Part shown: positions 111 through 58,086 of the stretch, piece after piece | Layout of the letters: each line of letters begins with the position of its first letter | How positions within the stretch are numbered: the stretch's first letter is position 1 | From: an uncultured Methanosarcinales archaeon | Lineage (GTDB): Archaea > Nanobdellota > Nanobdellia > Woesearchaeales > UBA525 | NCBI GenBank assembly: GCA_964589765.1 | Contig: CAZPUM010000001.1 | Location: forward strand, 29,118 to 93,117 | DNA length: 64,000 nt | Direction of reading: 5' to 3' | Notes under the pieces: generated by a model | The model's database searches: none | What the model saw: only the letters and a program-made list of their open reading frames with translations | Told to the model about the DNA's origin: nothing | Made by a program: the position numbers and the translations under genes

Positions 111-217
111 TTTTACCACCTGTAAGTATTCCAGAGTAAAAAACATGCTCTCCCCCAACTATTTAAGCATTTCGCACCGACGAATAGACCTTCTTAAACC
201 TCTACTGCACTGCCTTG

Positions 218-227: not shown

Positions 228-235
228 AAGGCGTG

Positions 236-20723: not shown

Positions 20724-20810
20724 GCCATAATAGTAAAAAAGCACTCATATAAATATTCTGTAACAAGAAAATTACATAATAGTTAATAAGGGCAATCCCC
20801 GCACAATATT

Positions 20811-21224
20811 ATGGAACTACTAAAACCCCCTGGTAATTATTGGTACTCGCGGGTCAGATATATAACTGAACCACCAAATGGACTTAAGTTATTGATTGCT
20901 AGTAGAAAAATTTTAGGACATAAGAGAAATAACTTTGAAAGCACCGATGTTTTCTTGTCCGTCATGGGCAATCCTGTCAGAGATTATCGACCAAACAATG
21001 GGCGCTTTGAAGAGATATACGGCATTTATGTTTACAAAGGCGACACAATAGTTACAGCAGGAGATCTTCGATTCAGAGAACTTTTGTATGAAGGACACGA
21101 ATTTTTCTCACACAAAAAAGTTCCCTTAGAAGAAAGAATTGATGCGTTTGTTGCAGAGTTAGTTGCAATGGAAGCAATAAAAGAAAAAGATGTCCGTGTT
21201 GGAAAGATAAAGTGGGGGTTATGA
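20811..21224 (+). CDS. Hypothetical protein.
   Basis: A 137-aa ORF with a TATA-like gttaataa about 25 nt upstream. Confidence 0.35.
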   Translation: MELLKPPGNYWYSRVRYITEPPNGLKLLIASRKILGHKRNNFESTDVFLSVMGNPVRDYRPNNGRFEEIYGIYVYKGDTIVTAGDLRFRELLYEGHEFFSHKKVPLEERIDAFVAELVAMEAIKEKDVRVGKIKWGL

Positions 21225-21311
21225 CCTCATCCCTTCTGTGTCTTAATACGGCACTCACCCAGTATCTGCGCATTCGCTTGATACATGAGCGCCTCGGATT
21301 TTATTAGGAAT

Positions 21312-21335
21312 TAGAATAAAAAAAAAGAAAAGTGG
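21312..21335 (-). terminator. Oligo-T archaeal terminator after the five-gene cluster.
   Basis: A(9)GAAAAG on the plus strand equals a T-rich run on the minus strand immediately after the stop of the 21340..22317 gene. Confidence 0.4.
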
Positions 21336-21339
21336 AGAA

Positions 21340-22317: not shown

Positions 22318-22326
22318 TTTTCCACC

Positions 22327-23646: not shown

Positions 23647-23688
23647 GTCGATACACTCCCGTTCTGAATTTTTAAATGTTCCGTCGAT

Positions 23689-25476: not shown

Positions 25477-27272
25477 CTGACCATCACCTGTGTTGCAGCC
25501 TCAATTGTGTAACTGTAATAAGCCACAGCTATAATGCTTCTCTCTGTTTTGTCTGCCTCGCTGATTAATGGGTACAAATCAGCACCTTCACGCACACCAA
25601 GTTTACAAGTTATGCTTGTATAAGTGGTAATTGGACCTGCATTCTTGTTTTCAAAGACATAGTTAGTATAATCTGGTTCGAATGGGTCAGGCTCCTGTCT
25701 ACACTCGTTAGGATTGTTCTCGCACCTATCACATTCGTAAAGTTCGAACGGTTCAGGCACCTTGAGTTCTATTTTGTTAACTTGATTTAGTTGACCGCTC
25801 CCCCACCCAGGGTCTAGAGTTAAACCGATTCTTGTTCCTGCGGGGATTGGGTTTTCCTCGGCCGGATTAATCCTGATTGGCTGAGGAGTGCCTCCCATTC
25901 CTATCTTTAATGGTCCCGCCGTGAAAATGGCGGTTGGATTAGGATCGATATCCAGAACATCTCTTACATCCAGGCCTTGCCTGGCAAGGTTTCTTGCCCT
26001 TTCATCATCTACAAAAGAGAATGTTATGTATGCCCAGGTCTGGAAAGGGAATGTTGCGAAAGATTTGATTCTGTAAGTTCCCGTTTCATCTATAGCACCA
26101 AATTTACACTCATATACCCCTGCAGTACCAAGAACAATATCGAGTATTTCGGGATCGACACTTGCCTCTTCAGTAATGGCTCGCCTATCAATCACACAAG
26201 ACGGAACAACCTTCAAAGAGTCTTCGTCATCTATGAATGTTTTTGCGTAGATTGTTCCGTAAACTGATAAGGGCATGTCTGTCGTGATAGTTCTATCAAT
26301 AGGCCTTAAATCTTCAAACTTAACACCTATGTCTGCCTCAGCATTATCTTCTACCCGCCCAGTATAATAAGCACCAGGGTTCAGGGTTTCATTTATTGTT
26401 CGGCCTATGCCTGAACCTATGTTTGTGAAAGCCTCGACAAAAGTATCAAACATATTTATTGCCGAGCCAGAAACATCCAACCCTCCAACCCCTACGATGG
26501 GCATGGTTGACAATGTCGGGAAGAAAATCAGACCAAAGAATAACACGATGAAGGATATCATCAATAATATTTTGTATATTCTGAATATCTTTGCTGCAGT
26601 TTCACTTGCCTGAGACAGTCTTTGTAACATGTAGATTGGCCAAACAGGAACAATGACTGCCAAGAAAAACAAAGCTCCGTGAATATTCTCGCTCCATGTG
26701 AACGCCTCTGCAACAGCAGGCATACAGTACATTACCGCACCTGCCAAAGAAACAACAAAAATTGACTTCTTACTCGTGTCACCAATTGCAACAATATAGG
26801 TTAGTCCTAAAGCGGACATCACAGCAAAGTATGTTATGAATGAGGCTGTTGAAGCACCAAATCTGAAAACAAAAATTACAAACAAGTGTATAAGTATTGA
26901 AATTATGAAAAAAAGAGTCGGGCCTCCTGTAAGAGCGTCAGCTGTCACGTTACCCCCTACGTTCAGTAGTTTTTTACCACCTGCCTTTCCCACTGCCCCC
27001 GCACCTTTTGCCAGACCTGAAATAGCATCTTTCAGAGTTGAACGCGCCTCGCTTATCCCTTTTTCAGCCTTTAAGTCATCTGAATGAGAATCACCTGATG
27101 GAACAGAAGGAGTGGCAATTGACGAAGAACCTTCTCCAGTTCCTCCGTCCGTTTTTACATCAATATCTAGCTCCACTTTGTTTCCATCTTTACTTACTTC
27201 AGAACCAACAGGACCTTTTAGCTTAGCCTCAACTTCCTCTCTTAGCTTCTCTTCTTCGTCAGCCATGCTCAC
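25473..27272 (-). CDS. Polytopic membrane protein (about 5-6 TM helices) with an acidic/K-rich cytoplasmic N-terminus and an extracytoplasmic C-terminal domain of about 330 aa.
   Basis: Hydrophobic helices span aa about 125-330. The C-terminal domain carries a related Cys-containing motif (YECDRCENNPNECRQEPDPFEPDY...GPITTYTSITC). Overlaps flanking genes by 4 bp. Confidence 0.55.
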   Translation of the reverse strand: MSMADEEEKLREEVEAKLKGPVGSEVSKDGNKVELDIDVKTDGGTGEGSSSIATPSVPSGDSHSDDLKAEKGISEARSTLKDAISGLAKGAGAVGKAGGKKLLNVGGNVTADALTGGPTLFFIISILIHLFVIFVFRFGASTASFITYFAVMSALGLTYIVAIGDTSKKSIFVVSLAGAVMYCMPAVAEAFTWSENIHGALFFLAVIVPVWPIYMLQRLSQASETAAKIFRIYKILLMISFIVLFFGLIFFPTLSTMPIVGVGGLDVSGSAINMFDTFVEAFTNIGSGIGRTINETLNPGAYYTGRVEDNAEADIGVKFEDLRPIDRTITTDMPLSVYGTIYAKTFIDDEDSLKVVPSCVIDRRAITEEASVDPEILDIVLGTAGVYECKFGAIDETGTYRIKSFATFPFQTWAYITFSFVDDERARNLARQGLDVRDVLDIDPNPTAIFTAGPLKIGMGGTPQPIRINPAEENPIPAGTRIGLTLDPGWGSGQLNQVNKIELKVPEPFELYECDRCENNPNECRQEPDPFEPDYTNYVFENKNAGPITTYTSITCKLGVREGADLYPLISEADKTERSIIAVAYYSYTIEAATQVMVR

Positions 27273-27281
27273 CTCAAACCA

Positions 27282-28553
27282 CTATACTATCTCGAGCTTG
27301 AGCTCGGCCACATCCAGGCGGTCAACGTGCGGCGCAATCTGAATAGTGTTCGGGCCAGGATTTATTATTCCTGGGTCAATGACCGCCTGCCATACATAAT
27401 CCTGCGTGCTGAAACTCTGAACAAATCCGTTCACCACAACCTCGCCTGATTTTACATTTCGATAATCTGTGAACGTCATGGTAAGAACCAATTGACCATA
27501 GCCAAGGTCGATTCCCTCATACATTTCCATTGGCAGATTGAAGTAATACACAGGGTAATCAGACTGTCGCATCTCTAAGGTCAACTTGATGTTGTCAACG
27601 ACATACTGTCCTCCCTGGACAGCAGCCATGAAAAGTCTGTTTTCTCCAACCCTCAGATACTCTTTTGGAACATCTGTCTTGAACCGGACTCCACAGTCCA
27701 CAAGACCTGTGTAGAGTATGTTTGGTACTGTGAATGTGTTATTGTCAGAATCCCTGACAAGCCTGTCGTTTAAATGAACGACCAACCTGCCTGCGTTGCT
27801 CGGGTCACAGTCAGGAATAAATTCAAGCTGAGCTGCTCTGAAAGCACCTATCTCTTCCTCAGAAACACTGAAAGTTTGTTCACTCACACTTCCTGACTGG
27901 TCAATAACGTCCGCACTTATCTGAATGTTTCTTAGCTTATACGCATTTGGTTGCCAGAATGCAAGACCTGTATCGTCTGTCTGGAGAGTTATAACATTCT
28001 CTCCTTCAACAAAGTAGTCTGTTGGCAACTGAATTGGTGGCGGGCTTGGTTCTCTAATGGGCCTTTCGTAAATCTGGTTTCCATTGATAAGAATCCTTAA
28101 AGGTCCTGAACCCGCCTCTTCTAAACTGAAGCTCAAAAGATAGTTTCCACTCCCCTCTTTTCCCGGAGTGAATGGTATCGACATGTCTTTCTTTGCAAAA
28201 ATACCATTCTTTACAATTCCTGAGTCTATAGATTTCACAACCTGTGTGTTGATTCTTGTGAATATTGTTGAAGTAGGAATATTATGTTCTTGTATCGGAC
28301 TCCTCAGAAATCTCAGAGTCCCCGGGGTCTCTGTAAGTACCAAAACTGGGCCATACTGCGTGAAGCTTCCGCCTCCTGAACCACCTCCCGACCAGGACTG
28401 GCCACCAAACCCCCCATCACCACCAAAAAGCAACTGGTCACGTTCGGCAGGAGGAAGGAATAAGATATAGAGCAGAAGGAAACCTGCTATGATTGCAATC
28501 AAGACAGCTGAGCCCGAAGCAGTCTGTCCCCGTCGAGAGCCTCCACCTAACAT
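27282..28553 (-). CDS. Signal-anchored (single N-terminal TM) surface protein with a Gly-rich linker and repeated beta-rich segments.
   Basis: N-terminal TM AVLIAIIAGFLLLYILFL; GGDGGFGGQSWSGGGSGGGS linker; three xVxxNGxx-type repeats. Confidence 0.5.
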   Translation of the reverse strand: MLGGGSRRGQTASGSAVLIAIIAGFLLLYILFLPPAERDQLLFGGDGGFGGQSWSGGGSGGGSFTQYGPVLVLTETPGTLRFLRSPIQEHNIPTSTIFTRINTQVVKSIDSGIVKNGIFAKKDMSIPFTPGKEGSGNYLLSFSLEEAGSGPLRILINGNQIYERPIREPSPPPIQLPTDYFVEGENVITLQTDDTGLAFWQPNAYKLRNIQISADVIDQSGSVSEQTFSVSEEEIGAFRAAQLEFIPDCDPSNAGRLVVHLNDRLVRDSDNNTFTVPNILYTGLVDCGVRFKTDVPKEYLRVGENRLFMAAVQGGQYVVDNIKLTLEMRQSDYPVYYFNLPMEMYEGIDLGYGQLVLTMTFTDYRNVKSGEVVVNGFVQSFSTQDYVWQAVIDPGIINPGPNTIQIAPHVDRLDVAELKLEIV

Positions 28554-36258: not shown

Positions 36259-36483
36259 ATGAATACCACTATAGCCATATCAAAGGAAACGAGAAATATT
36301 CTAAAGGAATTCGGAAAAAAATCGGAAAACTACGACGAAATCATTAGAAGAATGCACAACACAATAATGATGCAGATGGAACTCGGAAAATTTGTAGACG
36401 AAAACGAATACTCAAGCATTGAGGAAGCTAAAAACTGGACCAAACTCAGGATTGCAAATGATAAAAATCGTAGTTCTCAATGA
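36259..36483 (+). CDS. Possible antitoxin-like small protein.
   Basis: A 74-aa ORF immediately upstream of, and overlapping, a RelE/ParE-like ORF. Confidence 0.25.
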   Translation: MNTTIAISKETRNILKEFGKKSENYDEIIRRMHNTIMMQMELGKFVDENEYSSIEEAKNWTKLRIANDKNRSSQ

Positions 36484-36781
36484 ACTCAGAAATGAAATCT
36501 ATAAGACCTTCAAAAAGGACTCTCTGAAAGTATATACCCTAATAGAATCTCTGAAAGACAACCCTCAAAAGGTTGTTGGTTTAGTTGGTTCGATACTGAT
36601 TAAAGAATTGAAGTATGGGAGTTTCAGATTCTACTTCATAATAGATGGCCACAGACTGTATCTATTTACTAAAGGACAGATCAGGGACATTCTACTAAGA
36701 TTCATAAAAATGTCTAAAAAGAACAATCAGAAAAAAACGATAGAAGAGATAAAAAATATACTAAAGAGAATCACTCACTAG
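36458..36781 (+). CDS. RelE/ParE-fold toxin-like protein.
   Basis: About 107 aa with a beta-rich core (GSFRFYFIIDGHRLYLFTKGQ) resembling RelE/ParE. Overlaps the upstream small ORF. Confidence 0.35.
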   Translation: MIKIVVLNELRNEIYKTFKKDSLKVYTLIESLKDNPQKVVGLVGSILIKELKYGSFRFYFIIDGHRLYLFTKGQIRDILLRFIKMSKKNNQKKTIEEIKNILKRITH

Positions 36782-37145
36782 TCTTCGGAGACTCATTTTT
36801 CTCCTCTGGTTTTTCTGGAATTACCTTCTTGGTAGATTTTTTAGCAGGCGCCTTCTTCACGGGCTCGGGCTTCATAGCAACCCTTTTTCTAGGACGCTCA
36901 GCAGACTTCTTTGGCTTGCTCTTTCTGGGTTCAATACCAAGGGCCTTCATAACAGAATCGTGGCTGTCCCCCTTCTTTACTTTGACAACCTCACCAGTCG
37001 GCTCTATGTGCTTCATGTTCACCTTTCGCCTTCTCGTTTCTCCTTCAACCAGAACCATGTGTTCTTCCAGTTCTTCAACAATAACGCACTTTTTTCCTGC
37101 GTCTCGTCCTGCTATTTTCAGACATACTGCTCCAATCTTGAACAT
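36771..37145 (-). CDS. rpl14e: Ribosomal protein eL14 (L14e) with a K-rich C-terminal tail.
   Basis: KOW-like N-terminus (CLKIAGRDAGKKCVIVE). Confidence 0.8.
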   Translation of the reverse strand: MFKIGAVCLKIAGRDAGKKCVIVEELEEHMVLVEGETRRRKVNMKHIEPTGEVVKVKKGDSHDSVMKALGIEPRKSKPKKSAERPRKRVAMKPEPVKKAPAKKSTKKVIPEKPEEKNESPKTSE

Positions 37146-37201: not shown

Positions 37202-37471
37202 CTACTTGTTTCGTGCCTTTCTTTTGAAAAGGTTACGCATTGCGGTACTCGACAACATTCCTGCGAATGGCCTGGAAGGAACCTTCTGACTCCTTGTCAG
37301 TTTCTTCAATTTCCCAGGCCTCTCACGGGCAACACCATGAAGCTCTTCGCCGGTCTCTGCACAGTGCGCCTTTTTCGGCTTTCGCAGAGTGTGCCTGAGG
37401 ACATTCTTGCCTCCAGGAGTGCGTACGCGCTTCCTAGCGTATGTTCTTGAACGGAATTTGCCGCTTACCAT
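37202..37471 (-). CDS. rpl34e: Ribosomal protein eL34 (L34e).
   Basis: RSRTYARKRVRTPGGKNV...C..TG..L.G signature. Confidence 0.85.
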   Translation of the reverse strand: MVSGKFRSRTYARKRVRTPGGKNVLRHTLRKPKKAHCAETGEELHGVARERPGKLKKLTRSQKVPSRPFAGMLSSTAMRNLFKRKARNK

Positions 37472-37576: not shown

Positions 37577-38350
37577 CTAAGCCACATTCAACAGCTTCCT
37601 AAACCCTAAGCTGATAGGAATGCTGGATAATATGTAGTAGAATATCCACCCTGGCTTCCAGCCAAACAGTTGAAACCCTTCTCCACCCGGCAGAATTTTC
37701 TTGTTCCATACATTGAACTCTTTAACCACGCCCGACATTTTCTGCTCAGGAGGAAGGTAAGACCTCTCGGTAGTTATTAGCACCTGCCGTTCAAAAATCA
37801 CTCCCGCAACAGAAAGGTACAAGGTATGAGTTCCCTCTTCCCCAACAGCCCTCCACCCGGCAGTGCTCTGTTCAATCTGCTGTTCAGGATTTAGAATGTT
37901 AATTCCTGAACTTCCGTTCAGATAGACATTACCTGAGACACCATCCTCAAAGTTGGCTGTAACAGCAAACTCCTGCCCTGGCTCAATAGGATAGAACGCA
38001 AAGTGGTTACTCAGCCAGAAGAAAATAACCAAGAAAGGTATCATGGTAAACAGCAAGGGCTTGAAGCTCTGCTTCATCATGTCCAGTTGCATCGGCATCA
38101 TCTGGTTCTGGATCTTCATCACTCTGCCTGTATCACCTTTCTTCTGAGCCTCACGAATCTGTTTCTGATACTTTTTAGTATCCGCCTTCAACCTCTTTAG
38201 CTTGGCCTGGTCAGTAGCATACTTCTGAATAAGAATGCTGACCAGCCCCAGAAATGCGGATAGTATCAGGATGGCCAAAAGAGAAGGTATGTCCAACAGC
38301 CAACCAAATACAGGATTTAGCATCATATCGATTATCTGTTGAAACGCCAT
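37577..38350 (-). CDS. DUF106 (archaeal YidC/Oxa1-like, EMC3/TMCO1 family) membrane protein with an extended extracytoplasmic insertion.
   Basis: TM1, coiled-coil (KLKRLKADTKKYQKQIREAQKK), TM2 and TM3 topology typical of DUF106, adjacent to secY. An insert of about 100 aa lies between TM2 and TM3. Confidence 0.65.
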   Translation of the reverse strand: MAFQQIIDMMLNPVFGWLLDIPSLLAILILSAFLGLVSILIQKYATDQAKLKRLKADTKKYQKQIREAQKKGDTGRVMKIQNQMMPMQLDMMKQSFKPLLFTMIPFLVIFFWLSNHFAFYPIEPGQEFAVTANFEDGVSGNVYLNGSSGINILNPEQQIEQSTAGWRAVGEEGTHTLYLSVAGVIFERQVLITTERSYLPPEQKMSGVVKEFNVWNKKILPGGEGFQLFGWKPGWIFYYILSSIPISLGFRKLLNVA

Positions 38351-38351
38351 T

Positions 38352-39683
38352 TTAACCTGCCATGAACTTTCTCATAGCTGGATTGAAATCCATCATGTGC
38401 TGTTGAGCGATATCCATGTACATCCTGTACACAATCATGACCGTCAGTAGGATACCTGTTCCGCTTCCAAGCGCACCTGTAAGGTCAGCAACGCTTGCCA
38501 GCAAACCTACAGCAAGACCTCCAAGTATTGTCAGAGGCCAGATGTACCTGTCTAGCATTCTCTGAAGAACACGAGGGTCCTTTCTGAAACCCGGAATCTG
38601 TAACCCTGAGTTCATTATCTGTTTAGCTTGAGATCTTGAGTCAAGACCTGCTGTCTGAACCCAGAAAGACGCAAATATAACGCTTCCAATCATGAACAGC
38701 AGAATGTATGTTAAAGCCTGCCCTATGGCCAAGAATGATAAACTTCCTTCTATTGTGAGTTGGATAATATTCTGTGGAGACACCCAATTAACCAGCGATT
38801 CTGCCCACCCTGTACCAACAAGTCTTGCCAAGAGTTGGACGTTCGCCAACAGTGCTGCCGTCAAAATAACAGGGATGTTGCTTGTGTAAAAGAAGCTCAA
38901 AGGCCACCTAATTCCGTGCCCGCGAATTCTCCCAAAGCTTAGAGGGATTTCCACTTTCATTGCCTGCGTATAAACAACAAACATGAAAACCACTATCGTT
39001 GCCAATATCGTGAAGAAAGCGATTGAAGCAACTATGGTGTCTCCTGCCTGCAGAGCTTGAACAAGTTCAAACACTTTACCAACAGAGTAGTTGGCACCTG
39101 CAGGGGTCACCCAGTTAAACAACTGGACAAATATAGACTGACTTACACCTGCAGCGATGAACAGAGATATTCCTGAACCAAAGCCCCACTTACTGGTGAC
39201 TTCGTCCATGAACATAATCATAACTCCTCCCAGGATAAGTTGGAATATCAAAATCCATGTACTGACTCCTGGCAAGGGCGACAGACCCCCAAGTTTAACA
39301 TAAACAATGGCTTCCAATATAACGAAACCATACGCAAGTAGCTTCTGAATACCCTGGTATCTCCTCTTTCCATCAGGGCTGGATAAATCGAAATTTACGA
39401 GTCCTGAACCATTAAGCAACTGCAAAACGATGCTTGCGGTTACGATAGGACCAATACCAAGACTCAATACTGAACCAAAACTTGCTCCCAACACTGTACT
39501 TAGGAACTCAAAGTTTGCGAGTGCGTTCTGTCCTAGACCAAACAAAGGAATCAAACTAAGCGTGAAAAACAGAACCAGAATGATTCCCGTCCATTTCAGC
39601 TTCTCTTTGAAAGATAGCTTTTTCTGGGTCGGTCCCTGCACTTCAGGGAGGTGTGAGATAATCGTGTCGAGTAAGTCTGCCAA
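38352..39683 (-). CDS. secY: Preprotein translocase subunit SecY.
   Basis: 10-TM SecY/Sec61alpha with typical N-terminal and plug regions. Confidence 0.9.
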   Translation of the reverse strand: MADLLDTIISHLPEVQGPTQKKLSFKEKLKWTGIILVLFFTLSLIPLFGLGQNALANFEFLSTVLGASFGSVLSLGIGPIVTASIVLQLLNGSGLVNFDLSSPDGKRRYQGIQKLLAYGFVILEAIVYVKLGGLSPLPGVSTWILIFQLILGGVMIMFMDEVTSKWGFGSGISLFIAAGVSQSIFVQLFNWVTPAGANYSVGKVFELVQALQAGDTIVASIAFFTILATIVVFMFVVYTQAMKVEIPLSFGRIRGHGIRWPLSFFYTSNIPVILTAALLANVQLLARLVGTGWAESLVNWVSPQNIIQLTIEGSLSFLAIGQALTYILLFMIGSVIFASFWVQTAGLDSRSQAKQIMNSGLQIPGFRKDPRVLQRMLDRYIWPLTILGGLAVGLLASVADLTGALGSGTGILLTVMIVYRMYMDIAQQHMMDFNPAMRKFMAG

Positions 39684-39744
39684 TGTGCACCCCCTCTATT
39701 TCATGTTCGAGACAGTCCACGCTTTAAAAACATTATCCCTCAAA

Positions 39745-39756
39745 GCCCTTATAAAG
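39745..39756 (+). promoter_or_regulatory. BRE/TATA element CCCTTATAAAGC about 25 nt upstream of the Cys-rich surface-protein gene; coordinates approximate.
   Basis: The same 12-mer as upstream of Sec61beta. Confidence 0.35.
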
Positions 39757-39778
39757 CACGACGGCAAATAAACTCTTT

Positions 39779-41443
39779 ATGAAGAAGGGAAGCCCTCCTA
39801 TGCCTGTCTTATTGGTTTTGGCCACGTCTCTCTTAGTTGCGGGCATTCTGACCACTTACACTGCAGGAATCTATGCCTCTACAACGGTGTTTGGAGTGGG
39901 AATTCTACTGTTCTTCGGCATAGCACTTTACAATACAAAGATAGATGCGGGAAAACCCACAGCAATAGTCAGCATAACCGTTGCTGTGGTGTTGGCCATA
40001 ATTATGGCATCAACATTGTTCACAATTGTCCAGACTACCATTCCTGTCTGCGGTGATGGCATTTGCGCACCGTACGAGTGCGACGAGAATTGTGAAGACT
40101 GCACTCCTGACGATTGTCTAAACGGCATATGTCAAAGACCACTTGAGACTTGCGAGAACAGCCCTGACTGTTCTTGTCCGGGCGGAACTATCTGTGTTCC
40201 GGAAAGACCGGGAGTGGACCCTACAGGTTGCTTCTGGATTAAGTGTGGCGACAATTATTGCGACAAAGGAGAGTCCTCAAAAAACTGTTGTTCCGATTGT
40301 AAATGCGAAGCAGGGTATGAATGTAGACAAAATCAATGTTTCTTTTTACCGCCTAAGATGGCTTTCAACACTTTCCTTTTCAGCGATGAAATCGGTGCCA
40401 GCACTTTAGCTGCCAACCCCAACCTGAGAAATGAATCAGGAACCCCCCACCCCTTGGTGGCATTGGATTTGACAAACCAAGGAAGCTTCGCATCAGATGT
40501 TAGAGTCAGATTCAAGCTAGATGAGGTTTTTGAAGAGAGTTTTTCAGTGGGTTCTATGGATAAAGGAGACAACAAAGATGTTTTGTGGTTCCTTGACGAA
40601 ACCCCTCTTTATCTCTCGATTGTAGAAGATATTGATACAAACATAACTGTGACTGTAGAGTACACGACAACTGAAAATATTAGGAACTCTTTCAGCGTTA
40701 ACTATCCAATCAAAATTTTAAACAGAGGCAAACTTGATGATATTGGGGAGCTCGCATACTACGTAACCAAGGATATCAAACCAAATGGTAAAACCATAGA
40801 TATGATTTGGGAAGAATACAGAAAACAACTAGAACTCAGACCTAATGATGGAATTATTCAGTATCCTTTAGAGACTCTTATTTATGGCGGAGGCGACGAT
40901 AAAGACTTAGCCGTTTTCTTTGCCAGCGCTTTTTATGGTGCGGGAAAAATTACCCAGTTTGCCAACACAACTGATGGGATGATGCTTTGGGTAAGGTACA
41001 GAGGTAATTACGAAGTACTTGATACAAGACACGTTGACTTAAATTTTGCTAAGGCGCTTGACTCGCGACCGGAACGTACCACATTGAGCAGTTTCGATGA
41101 GGTTTGGGAAATGCACAGCATAGAACCGACAACATTTGACGCGAGAATGCTTCCTGGAATGAAAATAATCTCCTCATCAGAGGTTAGCCAGGAATGTGAC
41201 TGTGTAAGCTATTGCGGTCAAAAGGTTGAAGCAATCCACAAGATTATCAACCGAGGCTTGGTTAAATCAAAACTCTGCGCCAAATCTACAATAGAACTTA
41301 ACGATGAAATTCTCAACCAAAAAGAATGGTGTTTTTCTGTAAGCCCCGAACATTTAATCTCACTAGAACACCTATGGAAAAGCAACTCAACATGTCAAGA
41401 TGTTGATGTAGAAATCAAAGTGTGGAACGCTACCTTTTCATGA
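39779..41443 (+). CDS. Membrane-anchored (3 N-terminal TM) Cys-rich surface protein with CGDGIC-type repeats and a C-terminal globular domain.
   Basis: Three TM helices. Repeats CGDGICAPYECDENCEDCTPDDC.../...CKCEAGYEC. The C-terminal region has transglutaminase-like spacing (AVFFASAFYGAGKI...MMLWVRY) without an obvious catalytic Cys. Confidence 0.55.
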   Translation: MKKGSPPMPVLLVLATSLLVAGILTTYTAGIYASTTVFGVGILLFFGIALYNTKIDAGKPTAIVSITVAVVLAIIMASTLFTIVQTTIPVCGDGICAPYECDENCEDCTPDDCLNGICQRPLETCENSPDCSCPGGTICVPERPGVDPTGCFWIKCGDNYCDKGESSKNCCSDCKCEAGYECRQNQCFFLPPKMAFNTFLFSDEIGASTLAANPNLRNESGTPHPLVALDLTNQGSFASDVRVRFKLDEVFEESFSVGSMDKGDNKDVLWFLDETPLYLSIVEDIDTNITVTVEYTTTENIRNSFSVNYPIKILNRGKLDDIGELAYYVTKDIKPNGKTIDMIWEEYRKQLELRPNDGIIQYPLETLIYGGGDDKDLAVFFASAFYGAGKITQFANTTDGMMLWVRYRGNYEVLDTRHVDLNFAKALDSRPERTTLSSFDEVWEMHSIEPTTFDARMLPGMKIISSSEVSQECDCVSYCGQKVEAIHKIINRGLVKSKLCAKSTIELNDEILNQKEWCFSVSPEHLISLEHLWKSNSTCQDVDVEIKVWNATFS

Positions 41444-41966
41444 GATAATCTCTAAGTTTGTCAAGTGCAATGCGCCTATGACTAATATTGTTTTTCATCT
41501 CCTTGGACATCTGTGCATACGAAAGACAAAATCCATCAGGTTGAAAGACAGGGTCCCAACCAAAATCAGTTTCGCCTTTAGGAGAGACAATCCTTCCGTT
41601 TACAACGCCCTCGAAAAAATAGATTTCCCCAGAATCATATAACCCCATAGTACATCTTGCCTGTGCACCATACTCACCAAATTTTTCAGCAATCTTGAAT
41701 AGGTGTGGAGCTCCACCATGGTTCATAAACCACTTTATCAACGGTCCGGGCAGTCCATTCAAACAATCCATATGAAGACTCGTGTCCTCAACTATCAAGG
41801 GCCCCTTATGATGTATGATTGCAGATTCTAGTTTTGCTCGTATAACCTCTTCAGGGTCGGAACTTTGAATCTCAGCAAGGTTTAAATCCAGATGAATCAC
41901 GTCACCCAAAATTGCTCTTACCTCTTTTAGTTTGTTAGGATTTCCAGTAATGAAGTACAAAGTCAT
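41430..41966 (-). CDS. Non-canonical purine NTP pyrophosphatase (HAM1/RdgB, ITPase).
   Basis: ITGNPNKLKE motif and HAM1 fold length. Internal ATG (MTLYFITGN) chosen to avoid overlap with the ABC gene. Confidence 0.8.
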   Translation of the reverse strand: MTLYFITGNPNKLKEVRAILGDVIHLDLNLAEIQSSDPEEVIRAKLESAIIHHKGPLIVEDTSLHMDCLNGLPGPLIKWFMNHGGAPHLFKIAEKFGEYGAQARCTMGLYDSGEIYFFEGVVNGRIVSPKGETDFGWDPVFQPDGFCLSYAQMSKEMKNNISHRRIALDKLRDYLMKR

Positions 41967-42001
41967 AATCAAATAGAAAAAAAGAGGAGTGATAAAGTTT
42001 A

Positions 42002-43807
42002 CTACTTCACGTAACCGCCCTTCTGTAGGTTCCACAGTTTTTTGTACTGGCCTTCTTGTTTAATCAGATGGCTATGCTTGCCAACCTGTACAATATTTCC
42101 CTTGTCAAGCACGACTATCTTGTCTGCGTGCATGATTGTGGAAAGTCTGTGCGCGATGATTAGTGAAGTCCTTCCTTCCATCAGTCTTTCAAGGTCCTTC
42201 TGAATCTCATGTTCAGTCTCACTGTCCAATGCTGATGTCGCCTCGTCCAGAACAAGTATCTTCTTGTTGGCAAGGAGTGCTCGTGCAATTCCTACACGTT
42301 GCTTCTCTCCGCCCGACAGTCTGACACCTCGCTCTCCAACAATTGTGTACTCCTTTTTGGGCATGTCAACAATCACTTTGTCCAGTTGGGCAAACTTAAT
42401 CGCTTTCCACACCTGTTCACGGCTCGCCGTGGGGTTGCTGAACCTGATGTTGTTCCAAATAGTGTCATCGAACAACACAGATTCCTGTGGCACAATTGAC
42501 AGTTCAGCACGTAGTGAGTCCTGCTTCAGGTTCCTGATGTCCTTGTTGTCAATCAGGATGCTTCCTTCATCAACGTCGTACAGTCTGTACAGCAACTTCA
42601 CCAAGGTAGACTTTCCGCTTCCTGAGTGTCCTACAAAAGCCACTTTCTGGTTTGGCTCAATTTTCAGGTTGAAGTTCCTGAAAACAAACCTTTTGTAGTA
42701 TTTGAACCCCATATCACGGAACTCAATCTTTCCTTTTCTGACTTTCAGCACTTTCGAATCGTGCTTGTCTTTGATTTCGTTCTCGTACTTTTCATACTCG
42801 AATATACTCTCAAAGTCAGCCATACTGCGGGTGAAGTTTCTGATTCCGTGCATGAAACCGAACAGAGGTCCCAGCAGAGATGTGTACACCGTGTAGATGA
42901 ACGCAACATCTCCTACTGTGGCTTTACCGTTCAGGAGGTCCATTATTGGAAGCGCAACTACGAAGAAGGCTCCTAACCCCAGGATAAATGCGTGTCCCGC
43001 ATCCAGCCACCTAAAGTAACCCCATAACCTGTAAAACGCATCTCTTGTCTGGTGCGTTAGGCCAAGGAAGTTTCTTTTGACGGTTTTCTCCTTTCCGTAG
43101 TACTTTATGCTCTCTATGTTTGTGAAGTAGTCTGCCATAACAGCTTTCTCCACATCCTCCTTGTGGTTCGCAAGCACGTGTAAGTCCATCTGTTTGTTCT
43201 GAATTATGAGGCCCCATCCAAGGAACACCACAATCATTACTGTTATCACTATTGCAGATGTGACATTGACAGTCAGAAGAGCCGCAGCAGCCACTATGAA
43301 GAGGAATGTCATAGGCGCAAAGTTAAACACTATAACGTCTACTAATGCCTCCACAGAACGGCCTCCTCTGCTCATTCTGCTAATCATGCTTCCTGTCTTG
43401 TTTGTTGTGTGAAACCGATGGCTCAGGTGAATCAGGTGGTTGAAAAACCTCTTTTTCAGGTCAACAATAAGCCCGCTATCCAACTTGTTAATGAAATGGA
43501 TGTGAACAAATTTCAACACTGTCCTGACAACCAGCATTACGGCGAACACTGTAGCAACAATTCCTAGAATCACTAGGAAAGGGTCTGCTGACAGGGTTCC
43601 GGTCGCGTACTCTGTGCCATTATCGATAATAAGCTTGAACAGATATTTTTCCAACACATAGCTCGCTTCAATCACCAAGATGACTGCAAGCAGTGCGATG
43701 AATCGCCATCTGTAAGGCTTGACCATCGAATAGAGATTCCTCAGGTTCCGCCTGACATCAACCTTGAACTTCAGGTCTTCTTGCCGGTCTTCAGGTTCCA
43801 TTCCCAT
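42002..43807 (-). CDS. ABC transporter, fused permease-ATPase (type I exporter, MsbA-like).
   Basis: Six-TM domain plus a nucleotide-binding domain with Walker A GHSGSGKST, signature LSGGEKQR and Walker B ILVLDEATSALD. Confidence 0.85.
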   Translation of the reverse strand: MGMEPEDRQEDLKFKVDVRRNLRNLYSMVKPYRWRFIALLAVILVIEASYVLEKYLFKLIIDNGTEYATGTLSADPFLVILGIVATVFAVMLVVRTVLKFVHIHFINKLDSGLIVDLKKRFFNHLIHLSHRFHTTNKTGSMISRMSRGGRSVEALVDVIVFNFAPMTFLFIVAAAALLTVNVTSAIVITVMIVVFLGWGLIIQNKQMDLHVLANHKEDVEKAVMADYFTNIESIKYYGKEKTVKRNFLGLTHQTRDAFYRLWGYFRWLDAGHAFILGLGAFFVVALPIMDLLNGKATVGDVAFIYTVYTSLLGPLFGFMHGIRNFTRSMADFESIFEYEKYENEIKDKHDSKVLKVRKGKIEFRDMGFKYYKRFVFRNFNLKIEPNQKVAFVGHSGSGKSTLVKLLYRLYDVDEGSILIDNKDIRNLKQDSLRAELSIVPQESVLFDDTIWNNIRFSNPTASREQVWKAIKFAQLDKVIVDMPKKEYTIVGERGVRLSGGEKQRVGIARALLANKKILVLDEATSALDSETEHEIQKDLERLMEGRTSLIIAHRLSTIMHADKIVVLDKGNIVQVGKHSHLIKQEGQYKKLWNLQKGGYVK

Positions 43808-44084
43808 TGTTATTCACCTTAACATACCTTCATAGGTTTTATATTCTATCGTTGCCTTCCGAAGTACGAATGCCTGAACCTAACGCCATGTTTGGACGAT
43901 ATTACCGTATGCTCAAGTCGTACTCCGATATGGAAGATGAAGAACTAGAGATTACGGAGCCTGAACGTGACGATGGTACAGACCACGAACTACCAGTAGA
44001 TGCCCATGAGGAACGTTGGTAGTTTCATATTTCGTCACTCTCCGTAACCTGGAAGTGGCAACAGATCTTATTTAAGATTTTCTA

Positions 44085-44112
44085 TAAAAATTTCTCGACG
44101 AAAAAATAGACG
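44085..44112 (-). terminator. T-rich terminator region downstream of uL15.
   Basis: Minus-strand runs ctattttttcg and aaatttttatag lie 50-80 nt after the uL15 stop. Confidence 0.35.
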
Positions 44113-44162
44113 GAGAATAATCACAAGAATTTAGTGTAACAGGTTAACGAGAATTGAGTTAA

Positions 44163-44672
44163 TCACTCCTCAACAACTTCTTCGGTCTCTGGTGCATCTT
44201 CAAAACTGTCTTCCTGACCAGTTACATACTCTGCCTCTAGAACTCCGCCTGCTTTCTTGAGCTTCTCTTCCGCTTTAGGAGATGCAAACTTGACGCTGAC
44301 AGAAAGCTTCTGTGTGACTTTCCCAGCACCCAGTAGTTTTGTGTATCCGAGCTGTCTCAAGTTAACAATGACTTTGCCATCTTTCTCAAGAGCCTTACCT
44401 GAACGAACAAGCGCAGGCACAATCGAGTTGAGATGTCCTACGTTAATTGTGACCTCAACAGTCTCATAGGATGTAAATCCGCGCTTGGATGGGTCCTTCC
44501 CTGACTTGTACTCCTTCCATACAGAGGGCTTCTTTGCGTCTCCTTTTGCTCCGGTTCCGGCCATTCCGCGACCTCCGCGGTTTCCTGCACCACGGTGCTT
44601 CTTCATAGAACCCCAACCGTGTGTGGTTGAGCGACGCTGTCTAACATTTTTCTTGCGGTGGCGAACAACCAT
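44163..44672 (-). CDS. rpl15: Ribosomal protein uL15.
   Basis: G/R-rich N-terminus (HGWGSMKKHRGAGNRGGRG), typical of L15. Confidence 0.85.
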   Translation of the reverse strand: MVVRHRKKNVRQRRSTTHGWGSMKKHRGAGNRGGRGMAGTGAKGDAKKPSVWKEYKSGKDPSKRGFTSYETVEVTINVGHLNSIVPALVRSGKALEKDGKVIVNLRQLGYTKLLGAGKVTQKLSVSVKFASPKAEEKLKKAGGVLEAEYVTGQEDSFEDAPETEEVVEE

Positions 44673-45092
44673 TTACATCATCCTCCTTATCAGGTCGTCC
44701 ATGCTTGGCCTTTTGCCAAGGACGCCACCGTTTTGATAACTGACCTTAATACCCTTCCGGGAGAAACCACCGCGTGGCGGTGCTAGTCTGAAAACATTTT
44801 CACTGACGGGCTTTCTCTTTGCGGAAAGCTCTTTGATAACTTCAGGGCTGACCTCTCCGTAAGCCGTGAAATCTTTCACCTTTCTCAGAATCCCCTGATT
44901 CACCTTGTTGTCAGGAATGATTGCACAAACATGCTTTCTAAGTAGTTTTAGCGAGTCAAGCGCTTTTAGGATGTCGTGCCTTACGCCTATCTGGCGACCT
45001 CTGATTAGAATAACCGCAAACTGCTTTGCCTTTGGCGCAGGTTTCTCCACTGGCGCCGGCTTCTCTGTTTTTTTCTCTTCGGTCATAATCAC
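44673..45092 (-). CDS. rpl30: Ribosomal protein uL30.
   Basis: Archaeal L30 core (FAVILIRGRQIGVRHDILKAL). Confidence 0.85.
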   Translation of the reverse strand: MIMTEEKKTEKPAPVEKPAPKAKQFAVILIRGRQIGVRHDILKALDSLKLLRKHVCAIIPDNKVNQGILRKVKDFTAYGEVSPEVIKELSAKRKPVSENVFRLAPPRGGFSRKGIKVSYQNGGVLGKRPSMDDLIRRMM

Positions 45093-45871
45093 TCACTCGC
45101 TTCTGCCTGAATCTCTTCAGGAGTCTCAATCTTCTTGGTATTTTTCTTCTCACTACCATCTATAACAAGATGCTGTGCTTTGTAAGCCTCTGACATCTTC
45201 ATCTTGTTCAATTGACGAAGTGCTTTCTCACAAGCTTTAATCAGGTTGGTCTTAGTTTTTGTTTGGCCTAAGGTCTTACTCCAGACATTCTTAACGCCTG
45301 CGAGTGCTAAAATCTTTGCCACTTCTTTCTCAGTTGCAAGACCTTTACCTTTAGGTGCGGGCAACAATCTAAGAATGACGCTTCCGCACTTGCCTTCAAC
45401 AGCAAATGGCAGACTGTGTCCTGTCTCTGCCTTATCTTCCCAGCTTCCAACTCCACGTCGGATTTTAAAGAGGTTAAGCTTTGCCTGTCGAATCGCTTTG
45501 TCTCTTGCAGGGACTGTTTCCTTGCTACTTCCAAATCCAATTCCGACGTGTCCATTCCTGTCACCTACAACTGCGGTAACGCTGAACTTTGGCTTGTTTC
45601 CTTCTTTGGTCTTTTTCTGGGTGTTTTTGAAAATCCTTCTCTGACCTCCTCCGAACTTACCCTTGGCCTGGCCAATTAGCAGGAAGTCCATTTCGAGGTT
45701 TGGTATTAACGCATCGATTATCTCAGGTTCCAGAATTCTCTCACCGGAGTCAAGAATCTTATCGATATCTTTAATCTCCTTGTTCTTTACCGCGCGACCC
45801 AGAGCGGTTTTTGGTTTCCACTCTGCCACGTCGAATTCGGGCATTGTTTCCTTTCTTTTTTGATACGCCAT
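45089..45871 (-). CDS. rps5: Ribosomal protein uS5 with a K/E-rich C-terminal tail.
   Basis: dsRBD plus S5 C-terminal domain (VTAVVGDRNGHVGIGFGSSKE). Confidence 0.9.
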   Translation of the reverse strand: MAYQKRKETMPEFDVAEWKPKTALGRAVKNKEIKDIDKILDSGERILEPEIIDALIPNLEMDFLLIGQAKGKFGGGQRRIFKNTQKKTKEGNKPKFSVTAVVGDRNGHVGIGFGSSKETVPARDKAIRQAKLNLFKIRRGVGSWEDKAETGHSLPFAVEGKCGSVILRLLPAPKGKGLATEKEVAKILALAGVKNVWSKTLGQTKTKTNLIKACEKALRQLNKMKMSEAYKAQHLVIDGSEKKNTKKIETPEEIQAEASE

Positions 45872-46824: not shown

Positions 46825-47526
46825 TCACTTTTTTTCGGAAGGTTTTGGTTCTAGAGAGTCCTTGGAATTCACATTAGCTTTAGTTCCCTGTTGGGTTTTG
46901 GGCTTCTTTGGAGACTCCTTTGTTGACTCTTCTTTCTTGACGGTTGGTTTTTCATCCGCCTTTACTTCCTTCTCTATTTTTTTCTCAAGAGCTTCTGTGG
47001 GTTTCGAAGTTTCTTCGGAATCTTTTTTCTTCTCAGACTCTTCCGCTTCTTTTTCCAGCTCTTTTTGTTTCTTTTCTCGCTCCTGATCGCGCTCCTTCTT
47101 GGACTTACTCTGTGCTTCAAAGTCAGCTTTAATCTTGTCTGCGCGCTCTTTGGATGCGTTTAGGAATGTGAATCCTGCTTTTAGGCCAGCCTCAATGACA
47201 ACTGCCTTTTTCTTGCCCCCTAGTTTTCCACTAACAACAAGTGTGTGCACTTTTGGGTCGAAGTCTTCAAAGTTAACAGATGTTACGATAACAGGAAATA
47301 GACCGTCTTTAGTCTGACCGCGCACAACAACAGGGGTCTGATACCCTCCTTTGAGGTGCTTACGATATCCTTTCCTGTTGTCACCAATTTTGTTGTGAAG
47401 GCCTGTTGGCTTTCTCCACTTTGATGCGAGTTTACTCTTTTTGTGAGCATCCTGTCTGATGAACTTTGGCTGTTTTTTCTTCAAGTTAGCCTTCACATCC
47501 AACAGTCTCTTTTTGTCATCTGCCAT
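46825..47526 (-). CDS. rpl32e: Ribosomal protein eL32 (L32e) with a long K/E-rich C-terminal extension.
   Basis: L32e core (KFIRQDAHKKSKLASKWRKPTGLHNK); tail EKKQKELEKEAEESEKKK.... Confidence 0.85.
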   Translation of the reverse strand: MADDKKRLLDVKANLKKKQPKFIRQDAHKKSKLASKWRKPTGLHNKIGDNRKGYRKHLKGGYQTPVVVRGQTKDGLFPVIVTSVNFEDFDPKVHTLVVSGKLGGKKKAVVIEAGLKAGFTFLNASKERADKIKADFEAQSKSKKERDQEREKKQKELEKEAEESEKKKDSEETSKPTEALEKKIEKEVKADEKPTVKKEESTKESPKKPKTQQGTKANVNSKDSLEPKPSEKK

Positions 47527-55454: not shown

Positions 55455-56450
55455 CTATTTCCTCTGTTTTGAGTTTAGGTCAATTTCTTCAACTGTTGGT
55501 CCCGAAACGGGCCTTTTGAGTCTGACCGGCTTGACTAATGTTATCATTCTTTTTTTTGGACCTGGAACACTACCACGAATTACTAGGAACTCGTTTCCTT
55601 GTTTTCCAACTCCATAATTGATGAACCCGCCTTTGACGTTTACTTCTTCAGGCTTGTCTGATATCTTGAGAATCTGGTTATTGTACTGTACGCGCTGATG
55701 GTATCCCATCTGGCCCGCCATTGCCGTTCTGTACATGGTGTGCTGTTGTGCAACCCATCCGCCAAGAGAACCAGGCCTCCTGACTCCTTTCTCTGACTTG
55801 TGACTTTTCAGGCTGATTCCGAATCTCTTGACCGGGCCCTGATATCCGTACCCTTTACTGATTGCGTGCAGATCAAGGTAGTCGCCTTCTTTGAACACCT
55901 CGCTTGCCTTGATTTCCTTTCCGACAAACTCCTTGATTACAGCTAGTTTGTCAGCATTTGTTTTTCCACCTACCGCCACTTCAAAGAGTTGTGGTTTCTT
56001 TTGACCAATGCCTGTTTTGCTTGGCTGGGTCATGAGAATAACGCGAATTTCAACAATTTCTGGAGAATCAAAGGAGGAGTCAAGGGCGCTTGCGTCACCG
56101 GTTTTCTTTGAAGGGGTGACCTTGCGCCCGAGGTGCTTGTCCTTGCCAACAATCACCTCCTTGGCAACTTTTAGACCATAAGAGTCTGATGTGTATCCTC
56201 TAACGCTAAAAATGCGCATTGGTGGACACTCAATAATTGTACATGGAATGCTGATGGGCTCATTTTTTGATTTGGCAGTCTTGTGTGTTGCGACTGCTTT
56301 AACATGGGTCATGCCCATTTTGAAACCTGCAAAAGCCTGTATTCCCTCGCCATTAAGGTCGTAGCTCCTAACCCTTACGTACGACTTTTTAGCCCTCTTT
56401 CTAGGCCAGAACTGCATACTTCCTGCGCGTGGTTGTTTGGGCTTTGGCAT
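55455..56450 (-). CDS. rpl3: Ribosomal protein uL3.
   Basis: MPKPKQPRAGSMQFWPRKRAKK N-terminus; about 330 aa archaeal L3. Confidence 0.9.
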   Translation of the reverse strand: MPKPKQPRAGSMQFWPRKRAKKSYVRVRSYDLNGEGIQAFAGFKMGMTHVKAVATHKTAKSKNEPISIPCTIIECPPMRIFSVRGYTSDSYGLKVAKEVIVGKDKHLGRKVTPSKKTGDASALDSSFDSPEIVEIRVILMTQPSKTGIGQKKPQLFEVAVGGKTNADKLAVIKEFVGKEIKASEVFKEGDYLDLHAISKGYGYQGPVKRFGISLKSHKSEKGVRRPGSLGGWVAQQHTMYRTAMAGQMGYHQRVQYNNQILKISDKPEEVNVKGGFINYGVGKQGNEFLVIRGSVPGPKKRMITLVKPVRLKRPVSGPTVEEIDLNSKQRK

Positions 56451-56920: not shown

Positions 56921-57583
56921 TTATTGGTGTTTCGAAACCCAGTTGACAACCGCTGAGACCATCGCATCTCTTTTTTCCAGATTATTGAAGTTATGGCCTG
57001 CCCCACCTATTATACATAGTTCCTTCTCCCCCTCAATTCCGAGGAAAAGTTCTTTGGCATCATCCAAAGGAACGGCAGTGTCCTCGGAACCGTGAACAAT
57101 CAGAACTGGACATTTGATTTCAGAGGCTCCTGCCAGAACATCCAGTTCTGCTCTCTGCTCGAAAAAATCCTTCTCAATAACAAAGTGGACATCCTTGTCC
57201 TCTCTGTGCCAGTCCACTTTCCCTTGTTTTTCGAGCTGTTCTCTCTGCTCAGCACTGAGTAACCTCAGAGGGTCCCGCAGTTCTGCGGGGCTTGCCAGAG
57301 AGACCACCCCTTTTACTTTCTCGCTTGACTGTGCTACGAGCAACGATAATAGTGCTCCAAGGGAGTGCCCAAGCAGAATCACATAGTCATGATTCCCCAC
57401 CTCTTCGATTAATTCATCGAGCATAGTCATTGGAGGGGTCTGGAGAAACTTGTTTTCATCAAGCGGTTTGGGGTAGTTCATAACCACCACTCTGTGTCCT
57501 TTTTCCCTCAGTGCTTTAACGCAGGAACCTATTGTTCCACTCTTGTCATTACTTAGAAACCCGTGGCTTGCTATGATTACCAT
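56921..57583 (-). CDS. Alpha/beta-fold hydrolase (esterase-like).
   Basis: Nucleophile elbow GHSLG; catalytic His and Asp regions (VHGSEDTAVP). Confidence 0.75.
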   Translation of the reverse strand: MVIIASHGFLSNDKSGTIGSCVKALREKGHRVVVMNYPKPLDENKFLQTPPMTMLDELIEEVGNHDYVILLGHSLGALLSLLVAQSSEKVKGVVSLASPAELRDPLRLLSAEQREQLEKQGKVDWHREDKDVHFVIEKDFFEQRAELDVLAGASEIKCPVLIVHGSEDTAVPLDDAKELFLGIEGEKELCIIGGAGHNFNNLEKRDAMVSAVVNWVSKHQ

Positions 57584-58086
57584 AATTCCTCCTTTAAGAA
57601 CATCTCAACCCTGTCAGCCCTCAAGTCTGGGGCCCAGCAGGGGATTGACCTGACGGGGATGCGTTTCGCACAGTAATGTGCCATTATTCTTGTCGTAAGA
57701 GTTTGTTCTGACAACTCTTTCAACCTTTCTTCTTCGGGAACAAAGTGCAAAGGTCTTCTATGAAGAGAGAACACAAATTCGTACATTGTCCTGTCGATAA
57801 GTTTTCTTTGCTCATCTGGAACGACCAAATCATCGTTATAAGCATATACCAGGTTCTCAATCATGCCTTCATCAACAAAAGCGCCATCGGGGGCTTCAGA
57901 TTCTAGTTCCGCCTGGCGATTTATCACGGCAATTCTGAACTCCAAAGGGTTGGAGTTTTCTGGAAACTCTTTTCTAACCATTTCAGTAGCATTTGGCATG
58001 ACCACATAGCCTCTTTCTCTTAGAATTTCTGCCACTGTTGTTTTTCCAACGTTTCTTCCACCACTAAGTGCATACAATTTTTTCAT
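57577..58086 (-). CDS. P-loop NTPase or small kinase-like protein.
   Basis: Walker A GGRNVGKTT in the first 20 aa; 169 aa. Confidence 0.45.
   Translation of the reverse strand: MKKLYALSGGRNVGKTTVAEILRERGYVVMPNATEMVRKEFPENSNPLEFRIAVINRQAELESEAPDGAFVDEGMIENLVYAYNDDLVVPDEQRKLIDRTMYEFVFSLHRRPLHFVPEEERLKELSEQTLTTRIMAHYCAKRIPVRSIPCWAPDLRADRVEMFLKEELW

Follow-up and report, generated by a model that had tools for sequence, protein, structure and literature searches.

A split uL15-secY junction with a constant cysteine-rich protein gene and variable cargo in a sub-clade of Woesearchaeota

Introduction

The adjacency of uL15 and secY is among the most conserved gene neighbourhoods in prokaryotes. In a 64,000-nucleotide stretch of DNA deposited as an uncultured Methanosarcinales archaeon and placed by GTDB in the Woesearchaeales (assembly GCA_964589765.1, contig CAZPUM010000001.1, positions 29,118 to 93,117; the whole stretch is called the window below), an earlier note made from the sequence alone drew attention to a locus in which the two genes stand apart. 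How did this junction come to be broken, and is the break peculiar to this genome? We find that the split is an inherited clade character, a real but fairly ordinary rearrangement, in which a gene for a cysteine-rich protein is the constant element and the other genes in the gap change from relative to relative. The locus represents the familiar archaeal spc-secY cluster in rearranged form, and no new kind of system.

Results

Three genes separate uL15 from secY

The uL15 gene (44163-44672, minus strand; Pfam Ribosomal_L27A, E = 5.9e-14), for which tblastn finds orthologues in 80+ loci, is the final gene of an S10/spc-type ribosomal protein operon (uL3 ... uS5, uL30, uL15) that starts with uL3 (55455-56450, minus strand). 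From its stop codon to the start of secY, the listing of open reading frames (ORFs) and the Pfam and NCBIfam scans give 4,479 bp, exactly 39684-44162, filled by three genes, as expected from the earlier note, which had put the split at about 4.5 kb. After a non-coding spacer of 355 nt (43808-44162) comes a gene for an ABCB-type exporter (42002-43807, minus strand; Pfam ABC_membrane, 2.5e-22, and ABC_tran, 9.5e-34), then one for a HAM1 NTPase (ORF 41430-42035, probable start 41966, minus strand; Pfam Ham1p_like, E = 3.9e-45) and, on the opposite strand, one for a 554-aa cysteine-rich (Cys-rich) protein that has no Pfam or NCBIfam match (39779-41443, plus strand). An intergenic region of 95 nt (39684-39778), probably a divergent promoter region, lies between the Cys-rich gene and secY itself (38352-39683, minus strand; 443 aa, TTG start; Pfam SecY, E = 3.1e-64, and Plug_translocon). 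The DUF106/EMC3-TMCO1 gene, which encodes an archaeal YidC/Oxa1-like insertase (37577-38350, minus strand; Pfam EMC3_TMCO1, 5.1e-21), begins 1 nt downstream of secY. It is followed by eL34 (37202-37471, minus strand; Pfam Ribosomal_L34e, 4e-19) and by eL14 (36771-37145, minus strand; NCBIfam PRK04333 L14e, E = 3.8e-22, and a weak KOW match), the latter with a Lys-rich C-terminal extension. Thus, the order secY-DUF106-eL34-eL14 read in the earlier note is confirmed by Pfam and NCBIfam matches, all on one strand.

Neither tblastn nor blastn finds anything in the related loci that resembles the 355-nt spacer. We considered that it might be a gene remnant and rejected this for want of any such match; a 71-aa plus-strand ORF there (43807-44022) belongs to no family.

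The canonical archaeal cluster runs uS5-uL30-uL15-secY-[adkA]-YidC/DUF106-eL34-[cmk]-eL14 (PMC5898192, PMC10833476), and its secY-YidC neighbourhood is conserved in archaea (PMC5898192). The window resembles it in the order of the ribosomal protein genes between uL3 and uL15 and in that secY is directly followed by DUF106/EMC3, eL34 and eL14, but differs in having 4.5 kb and three unrelated genes, one of them on the opposite strand, between uL15 and secY, and in a promoter-like element of its own at secY. It also lacks adk and cmk, as do all surveyed Woesearchaeota and the DPANN genome GW2011_AR10.

The split is shared by one clade of Woesearchaeota

To place the split, we mapped the window proteins by tblastn onto 80 species-representative Woesearchaeota loci taken with 10-kb flanks around secY. 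Both uL15 and secY are present in 81 loci including the window, 76 of them intact and five split. In 76 of the 81, the uL15 and secY hits lie less than 400 nt apart (median over all 81, 78 nt), and once uL15 is extended to its stop codon, most intact loci have an intergenic spacer of 15 nt or less. Outside the window and its closest relatives, no gap exceeds 600 nt. Against these distances, the split is well outside chance. Among 7,996 SecY homologues the closest named ones belong to Woesearchaeota, and others carry the name Nanoarchaeota; they identify the window as DNA of a Woesearchaeota (DPANN) archaeon. Further loci were added by context look-ups for SecY proteins 70-84% identical to that of the window and for members of the Cys-rich family; every locus added in this way is split. 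Both flanks are visible in nine split loci, namely the window, L002, L003, L084, L085, L086, L091 and two JGI contigs, and three further loci of the clade (L001, L087 and L004) are truncated. On the contigs of L001 and L087 the Cys-rich gene is divergent from secY and adjoins it, and on the short contig of L004 there is no uL15 within 830 nt of secY.

In a neighbour-joining (NJ) tree of SecY the split loci are monophyletic in 100 of 100 bootstraps, and a sister group of three loci (L005, L007 and L015) joins them in 94 of 100. Together, the locus survey and the tree reject a split ancestral to all Woesearchaeota. They are also at odds with the recent insertion that the earlier note implied: the split and the same Cys-rich gene occur throughout a clade whose SecY proteins are 70-84% identical to that of the window. 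That note had also named a synteny comparison as a check, with an arrangement ancestral to the whole lineage as the refuting outcome; the shared arrangement holds for the sub-clade and not for the phylum.

A cysteine-rich protein gene is the constant element of the gap

By tblastn, all split loci with DNA readable over the whole gap encode a Cys-rich homologue, in each case on the strand that does not carry the ribosomal operon, and none of the 76 intact loci does. In L091 it is the sole gene in the gap. An exhaustive phmmer search with residues 190-554 against 1.84 billion representative proteins recovered only 29 clusters, whose members are 130-560 aa long, and a word-index homology search returned only the query itself. 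The family is thus small and, as far as sampled, confined to the uL15-secY junction.

An AlphaFold2 model of the protein, made with 22 family members, is confident, with a mean predicted local distance difference test score of 86. It places three transmembrane (TM) helices at the N-terminus (residues 8-87), followed by a poorly structured stalk that holds all 19 conserved cysteines of the family (residues 91-187). Beyond the stalk are a CARDB-like beta-sandwich, a mixed alpha/beta domain at approximately residues 330-450, and a C-terminal beta-sandwich that is missing from the short forms of 444-456 aa. The alpha/beta domain has a papain-like transglutaminase core fold in the model. Pfam Transglut_core matches three of the 22 members (best E = 0.01) and not the window protein, and a profile of the family found nothing significant among PDB sequences. 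Compared with the transglutaminase-like/papain-fold superfamily (Pfam Transglut_core; pseudomurein endoisopeptidase PeiW, 8jx4; LapG, 4fgo; BDI_1141, 3kd4), the family has no conserved catalytic Cys/His and a distinct architecture of three TM helices, a 19-Cys stalk and CARDB-like sandwiches. Within residues 330-450, no alignment column has Cys or His in at least 60% of the 22 members; the position aligned with the nucleophile is variable (D/R/P/A/Q) and only D415 is nearly invariant. Cys-dependent protease or transglutaminase activity is therefore not expected. We read the model as a membrane-anchored, disulfide-stabilised extracellular protein whose protease/transglutaminase-like domain would be a catalytically dead binding module. 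It may bind at the cell surface, e.g. in the cell-cell contact of these probably episymbiotic archaea.

In one clade member, L084 (8019-9417, minus strand), the gene is called as two ORFs of 271 and 207 aa and the tblastn match falls into two pieces, which points to a pseudogene with a frameshift or else to an error of assembly. A real disruption would mean that at least one member of the clade can do without the Cys-rich gene.

The rest of the gap differs in every relative

The gap ranges from 1.7 to 7.5 kb. The smallest (1.67 kb, L091) holds the Cys-rich gene alone, L003 (2.4 kb) adds HAM1, and L084 (2.6 kb) has only the Cys-rich gene, apparently as two ORFs. A 251-aa ORF, the Cys-rich gene and a TrmB gene fill the 4.4 kb of L085, against the ABC, HAM1 and Cys-rich genes in the 4.5 kb of the window. 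The gap of L086 (approximately 6.6 kb) contains RibD_C, a three-gene ABC-2 system, a 213-aa ORF, TrmB and the Cys-rich gene, and that of L002 (7.5 kb) contains NUDIX, MNT/HEPN, HAM1, a periplasmic binding protein, TrmB, a MazE-like protein and the Cys-rich gene. The two JGI contigs have gaps of 3.9 and 6.6 kb, with opposite-strand proteins of 535 and 540 aa that have no Pfam match and with a Thi4-like gene. With gene content different in every relative, the description of the junction as a rearrangement hotspot holds. An inositol-monophosphatase-family gene also moves about: it follows the DUF106 gene in L001 (3017-3778) and L002 (12102-12839), stands right after uL15 on the JGI contig of P0012, and is absent from the cluster of the window, which indicates local shuffling around secY in the split clade.

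Hotspots of variable insertion that lie between conserved core genes are a familiar concept, akin to that of genomic islands. The gap resembles them in its fixed flanks, uL15 and secY, in cargo that varies in nearly every relative, and in the presence of toxin-antitoxin-like genes (MNT/HEPN, MazE) and regulators among that cargo. It differs in that the window has no integrase, tRNA target or repeats, and carries native housekeeping-type genes with native codon usage.

The ABC exporter is a native gene found at this site in one genome

The ABC protein has a six-TM ABC_membrane domain (PF00664, 80.3 bits) followed by an ABC_tran nucleotide-binding domain (PF00005, 117.4 bits; Walker A GHSGSGKS), which makes it an ABCB half-transporter. 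It shares the single-polypeptide ABC_membrane plus ABC_tran arrangement of the MsbA, ATM1 and HMT1-like type I exporters, and its best alignments, over the full length, are to NCBIfam models of the MsbA type. Its scores lie far below every equivalog cut-off, including those for MsbA (TIGR02203, 381.4 against 602 bits; NF008381, 323 against 867), such that a substrate is not assignable from the models. Hence, the MsbA-like exporter of the earlier note stands as an architecture of the ABCB type, but not as MsbA.

All 120 listed homologues are 55-61% identical to the window protein, and wherever an organism is named it belongs to DPANN (Nanoarchaeota, Woesearchaeota or Pacearchaeota). The orthologue group is DPANN-wide and is labelled by some sources as "subfamily B, heavy metal transporter". 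In two relatives the orthologues lie in unrelated housekeeping neighbourhoods. The idea that ABC and HAM1 form a conserved pair was rejected, since ABC orthologues are flanked by XPD, Dna2-like, TldD/PmbA and other genes, with no HAM1 nearby. A tblastn search of the surveyed loci found no other ABCB-type copy near secY; the sole hit, in L032, is a weak match to the ATPase domain of an unrelated gene approximately 9 kb from secY. Because the named homologues are all from DPANN and the orthologues elsewhere have unrelated neighbours, we conclude that a native DPANN gene entered the gap of this genome by relocation or duplication. The earlier note saw an exporter and a surface protein physically linked to the translocon genes. 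The position of the Cys-rich gene is indeed conserved, but that of the exporter is unique to this genome and therefore gives no evidence of a functional link; its place beside the translocon genes appears accidental.

The HAM1 gene encodes a HAM1/RdgB-type non-canonical NTP pyrophosphatase, judging from a full-length domain match (PF01725, 154.5 bits against a cut-off of 22.5, profile positions 1-186); its score for the NCBIfam equivalog TIGR00042 (128.9 bits) is under the cut-off of 145.35, which leaves exact orthology less certain. The ORF reaches upstream as far as a GTG at 42035, and translation probably starts at M24 (41966), because the Pfam match (from residue 26) and the homologues in L002 and L003 (which start at MTLYFITGN) begin there. 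With this start the ABC-HAM1 spacing is 35 nt. HAM1 and the Cys-rich gene are convergent, and their 3' ends overlap by 14 bp. Across the loci HAM1 is patchy, being found by tblastn only in the window, L002 and L003.

Composition and repeated occurrence argue for native, correctly assembled DNA

A recently acquired foreign island, i.e., approximately 4.5 kb of horizontally transferred or mobile-element DNA inserted in this genome, is the reading to which the earlier note leaned when it proposed a scan of guanine-plus-cytosine (GC) content and codon usage. It would fit the presence of the ABC gene at this site in this genome only, the different gap content of relatives and the somewhat high GC content at third codon positions of the ABC gene (0.563, z = +2.07). 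Against it, none of the three genes stands out from the rest of the window in its likelihood of synonymous codons (Cys-rich gene, z = 0.17; HAM1, z = 0.22; ABC, z = -0.03), and GC content is continuous across both gap junctions and within the range of the window. A repeat search for island borders gave only chance-level short matches, direct or inverted; an Rfam scan of 35-46 kb gave no hits and no tRNA; and the interval contains no integrase, transposase or recombinase Pfam family. The Cys-rich core is clade-wide down to 70% SecY identity, and the named homologues of the ABC protein, at 55-61% identity, all come from DPANN. A foreign island is therefore very unlikely, and for the Cys-rich core already largely refuted. 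It is scarcely credible that the split merely reflects a chimeric join in a metagenome contig or an error of binning. All of the data do come from metagenome-assembled contigs; the same split with the same orphan family nevertheless recurs in at least 11 independent assemblies, from different samples and sources (NCBI, ENA, JGI and Logan) and of very different base composition (L085 and L004 are GC-rich), and composition does not change at either junction.

Promoter-like motifs suggest four transcription units

Past uL15 the minus strand has two oligo-T tracts, T6 at 44106-44101 and T5 at 44090-44086, 57-77 nt after the stop codon. These are the T-rich tracts that the earlier note placed near 44090, and they may act as an archaeal terminator of the ribosomal protein operon. 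Upstream of the ABC gene are a TATA-like AATATAAAA (43845-43837, minus strand) and, just before the ATG, AAGGTGA (43820-43814). The Cys-rich gene has a TATA-like box, TTATAAAG, at 39749-39756 on the plus strand; its spacing of approximately 27 nt from the ATG implies a leaderless mRNA. On the other strand of the same intergenic region, a TATA-like box, TTTTTAAA, lies 40-47 nt before the TTG of secY (39730-39723), with a Shine-Dalgarno-like site, GAGGGGGTG, just before that codon (39696-39688).

The secY element recurs in the split clade as a conserved combination of B recognition element (BRE) and TATA-like box, approximately 35-50 nt before the start codon and often followed by a G-rich Shine-Dalgarno-like site. 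In L001-L004 and L084-L087, an AAC(C/G)TATTTAAA / TTTATAAA box stands upstream of secY with the same spacing. It reads AACCTATTTAAA in L002, L004, L084 and L086, with the close variant AACCTTTTAAA in L085. L003 and L087 have GCTTTATAAAG or CGTTTATAAAG, and the form in L001 and the window is TCTTTTTAAAA or TGTTTTTAAAG. The TATA box of its own that the earlier note had assigned to secY thus reappears as a promoter-like BRE/TATA whose motif is conserved across the clade. This conservation supports a separate secY transcription unit, and the motifs together support four putative units, namely the ribosomal operon, ABC-HAM1, the Cys-rich gene and secY-DUF106-eL34-eL14.

The sister group has uL15-secY spacers of 212 nt (L005) and 237 nt (L007). 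In L007 (9750-9990) the 237-nt spacer is pyrimidine-rich, with a T9 tract followed by AAAGCATTTATAAACC (BRE/TATA). In L015 a 78-aa zinc-ribbon ORF (44-280, plus strand; CPKC...CNDC) is immediately upstream of secY, and AAAGCCTTTATAAAGC is present there too. Two of the three sister members (L007 and L015) therefore have a secY-proximal BRE/TATA, the box of the sister clade reading AAAGC(A/C)TTTATAAA. This suggests that the junction had already been loosened before the Cys-rich gene arrived, with the sister group as an intermediate.

The lack of adk and cmk is older than the split

A canonical archaeal neighbourhood has AdkA near secY and YidC (PMC5898192), and the earlier note listed missing adk and cmk among the peculiarities of this locus. 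A six-frame P-loop scan of the 64 kb gave no candidate for either gene, finding only an AAA ATPase, an Mrp-like protein, SufC, the ABC exporter and a 169-aa AAA_28 protein. Scans with archaeal-type and bacterial-type P-loop motifs, to a distance of 10 kb from secY, were likewise negative for adk and cmk in all of approximately 90 Woesearchaeota loci, and returned only distant ORFs that by eye resemble shikimate kinase or uridine kinase. In nearly all of these loci secY is directly followed by DUF106, and eL34 by eL14; in the seven with larger secY-DUF106 gaps, none of the ORFs inspected there is kinase-like. Another DPANN genome, GW2011_AR10, reads L30-L15-secY-HP-L34e-L14e (PMC10833476). Thus, the two genes are indeed absent from the locus, but not as part of this event: their lack is a lineage-wide trait that predates the uL15-secY split and is unrelated to it.

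The 169-aa P-loop protein (57577-58086, minus strand; AAA_28, E = 3.3e-11), the only small kinase-like ORF of the window, is neither adk nor cmk by Pfam. Its gene lies two genes upstream of the start of the ribosomal operon; the gene that separates it from uL3 encodes an alpha/beta hydrolase (56921-57583).

Discussion

We propose a stepwise history that, taken as a whole, we consider likely. In the common ancestor of the sub-clade, the uL15-secY junction would have been loosened as the spacer widened and secY gained a promoter. An opposite-strand gene for the putative Cys-rich surface protein would then have become fixed in the gap, perhaps together with HAM1, cutting the cluster into the ribosomal operon, a secY-DUF106-eL34-eL14 unit and a divergent, presumably leaderless, Cys-rich gene. 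With co-transcription no longer needed, the site would have become permissive, and native genes could come and go. This order of events is the most parsimonious reading of the tree.

Several points weigh against this history or its details. Every sequence is a metagenome assembly, and the NJ tree is built on SecY as its single gene, such that some details might shift in a phylogenomic tree. The contig of L004 ends too soon to reveal its upstream content, and only length and position place the 535- and 540-aa proteins of the JGI contigs in the Cys-rich family. The promoters, the terminators and the limits of the units are read from motifs only. As to HAM1, the layout uL15 > HAM1 > < Cys-rich is common to the window and L003, which belong to different sub-branches, so the gene may have been in the ancestral insert and later been lost several times; repeated gain fits as well.

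The constant place of the Cys-rich gene beside secY could instead reflect function. The two genes might be co-regulated through a shared bidirectional promoter, with the Cys-rich protein acting as a translocon-associated or quality-control factor or as a major surface adhesin for host contact that depends on Sec/YidC and whose dosage would follow translocon expression. If the protein were such a translocon partner, its persistence at an otherwise inviolate junction would be explained. We consider a functional pairing of this kind improbable. In L085 and the two JGI contigs, a TrmB gene, a Thi4-like gene and small ORFs lie between the Cys-rich gene and secY, and the copy in L084 is apparently disrupted into two ORFs. 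The TRAP-alpha match reflects a generic Ig-like fold and is one of dozens of similar ones. Adjacency is moreover expected from inheritance alone at SecY identities of 70% or more, and simple inheritance explains the adjacency data. The more specific proposal, that the protein is a partner of SecY/YidC or the main Sec-dependent host-attachment protein, with expression tied to secY by the bidirectional promoter, is a shade more doubtful still.

On the stepwise history, the break is clade-wide and dated, and so provides a clean synteny marker (synapomorphy) for a sub-lineage of Woesearchaeota. It is also a natural example of the breakup of an ancient operon, in which, to judge from the sister clade, an internal promoter for secY preceded the entry of the opposite-strand gene and the turnover hotspot followed. 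Finally, it points to a small, uncharacterised, clade-confined family of disulfide-rich surface proteins that could matter for DPANN cell-cell contact.

Other features of the window

Several ribosomal proteins have long charged tails. In eL32 (46825-47526; 233 aa) a C-terminal extension of approximately 100 residues is Lys/Glu-rich, the tail of eL14 is Lys/Pro-rich, and those of uL15 and uS5 (45089-45871) are acidic.

Between eL14 and a DUF7847 membrane protein gene, two small overlapping ORFs (36259-36781, plus strand) encode a 74-aa protein with a DUF7557 match (E = 2.8e-6) and a 120-aa protein of no family that is RelE/ParE-like by eye. GC content is lower here than anywhere else in the window (0.328, z = -3.15, for the 120-aa ORF; 0.358 for 36-37 kb), and the pair is absent from the same position in L001, L002 and L091. 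It is possibly a recently acquired toxin-antitoxin pair.

Six consecutive genes on the minus strand (19749-28553) encode proteins of 331, 325, 439, 595, 599 and 423 aa, for which the sole Pfam matches are DUF2272 at the C-terminus of the 595-aa protein and a CBM-like one below threshold; possibly they form a lineage-specific block of surface or cell-envelope genes. A 541-aa fusion of a SufS-like class V aminotransferase and a NifU-N/IscU-like domain (15207-16832, minus strand) adjoins sufB/sufD and a SufC-like ATPase gene, forming a compact Fe-S assembly cluster.

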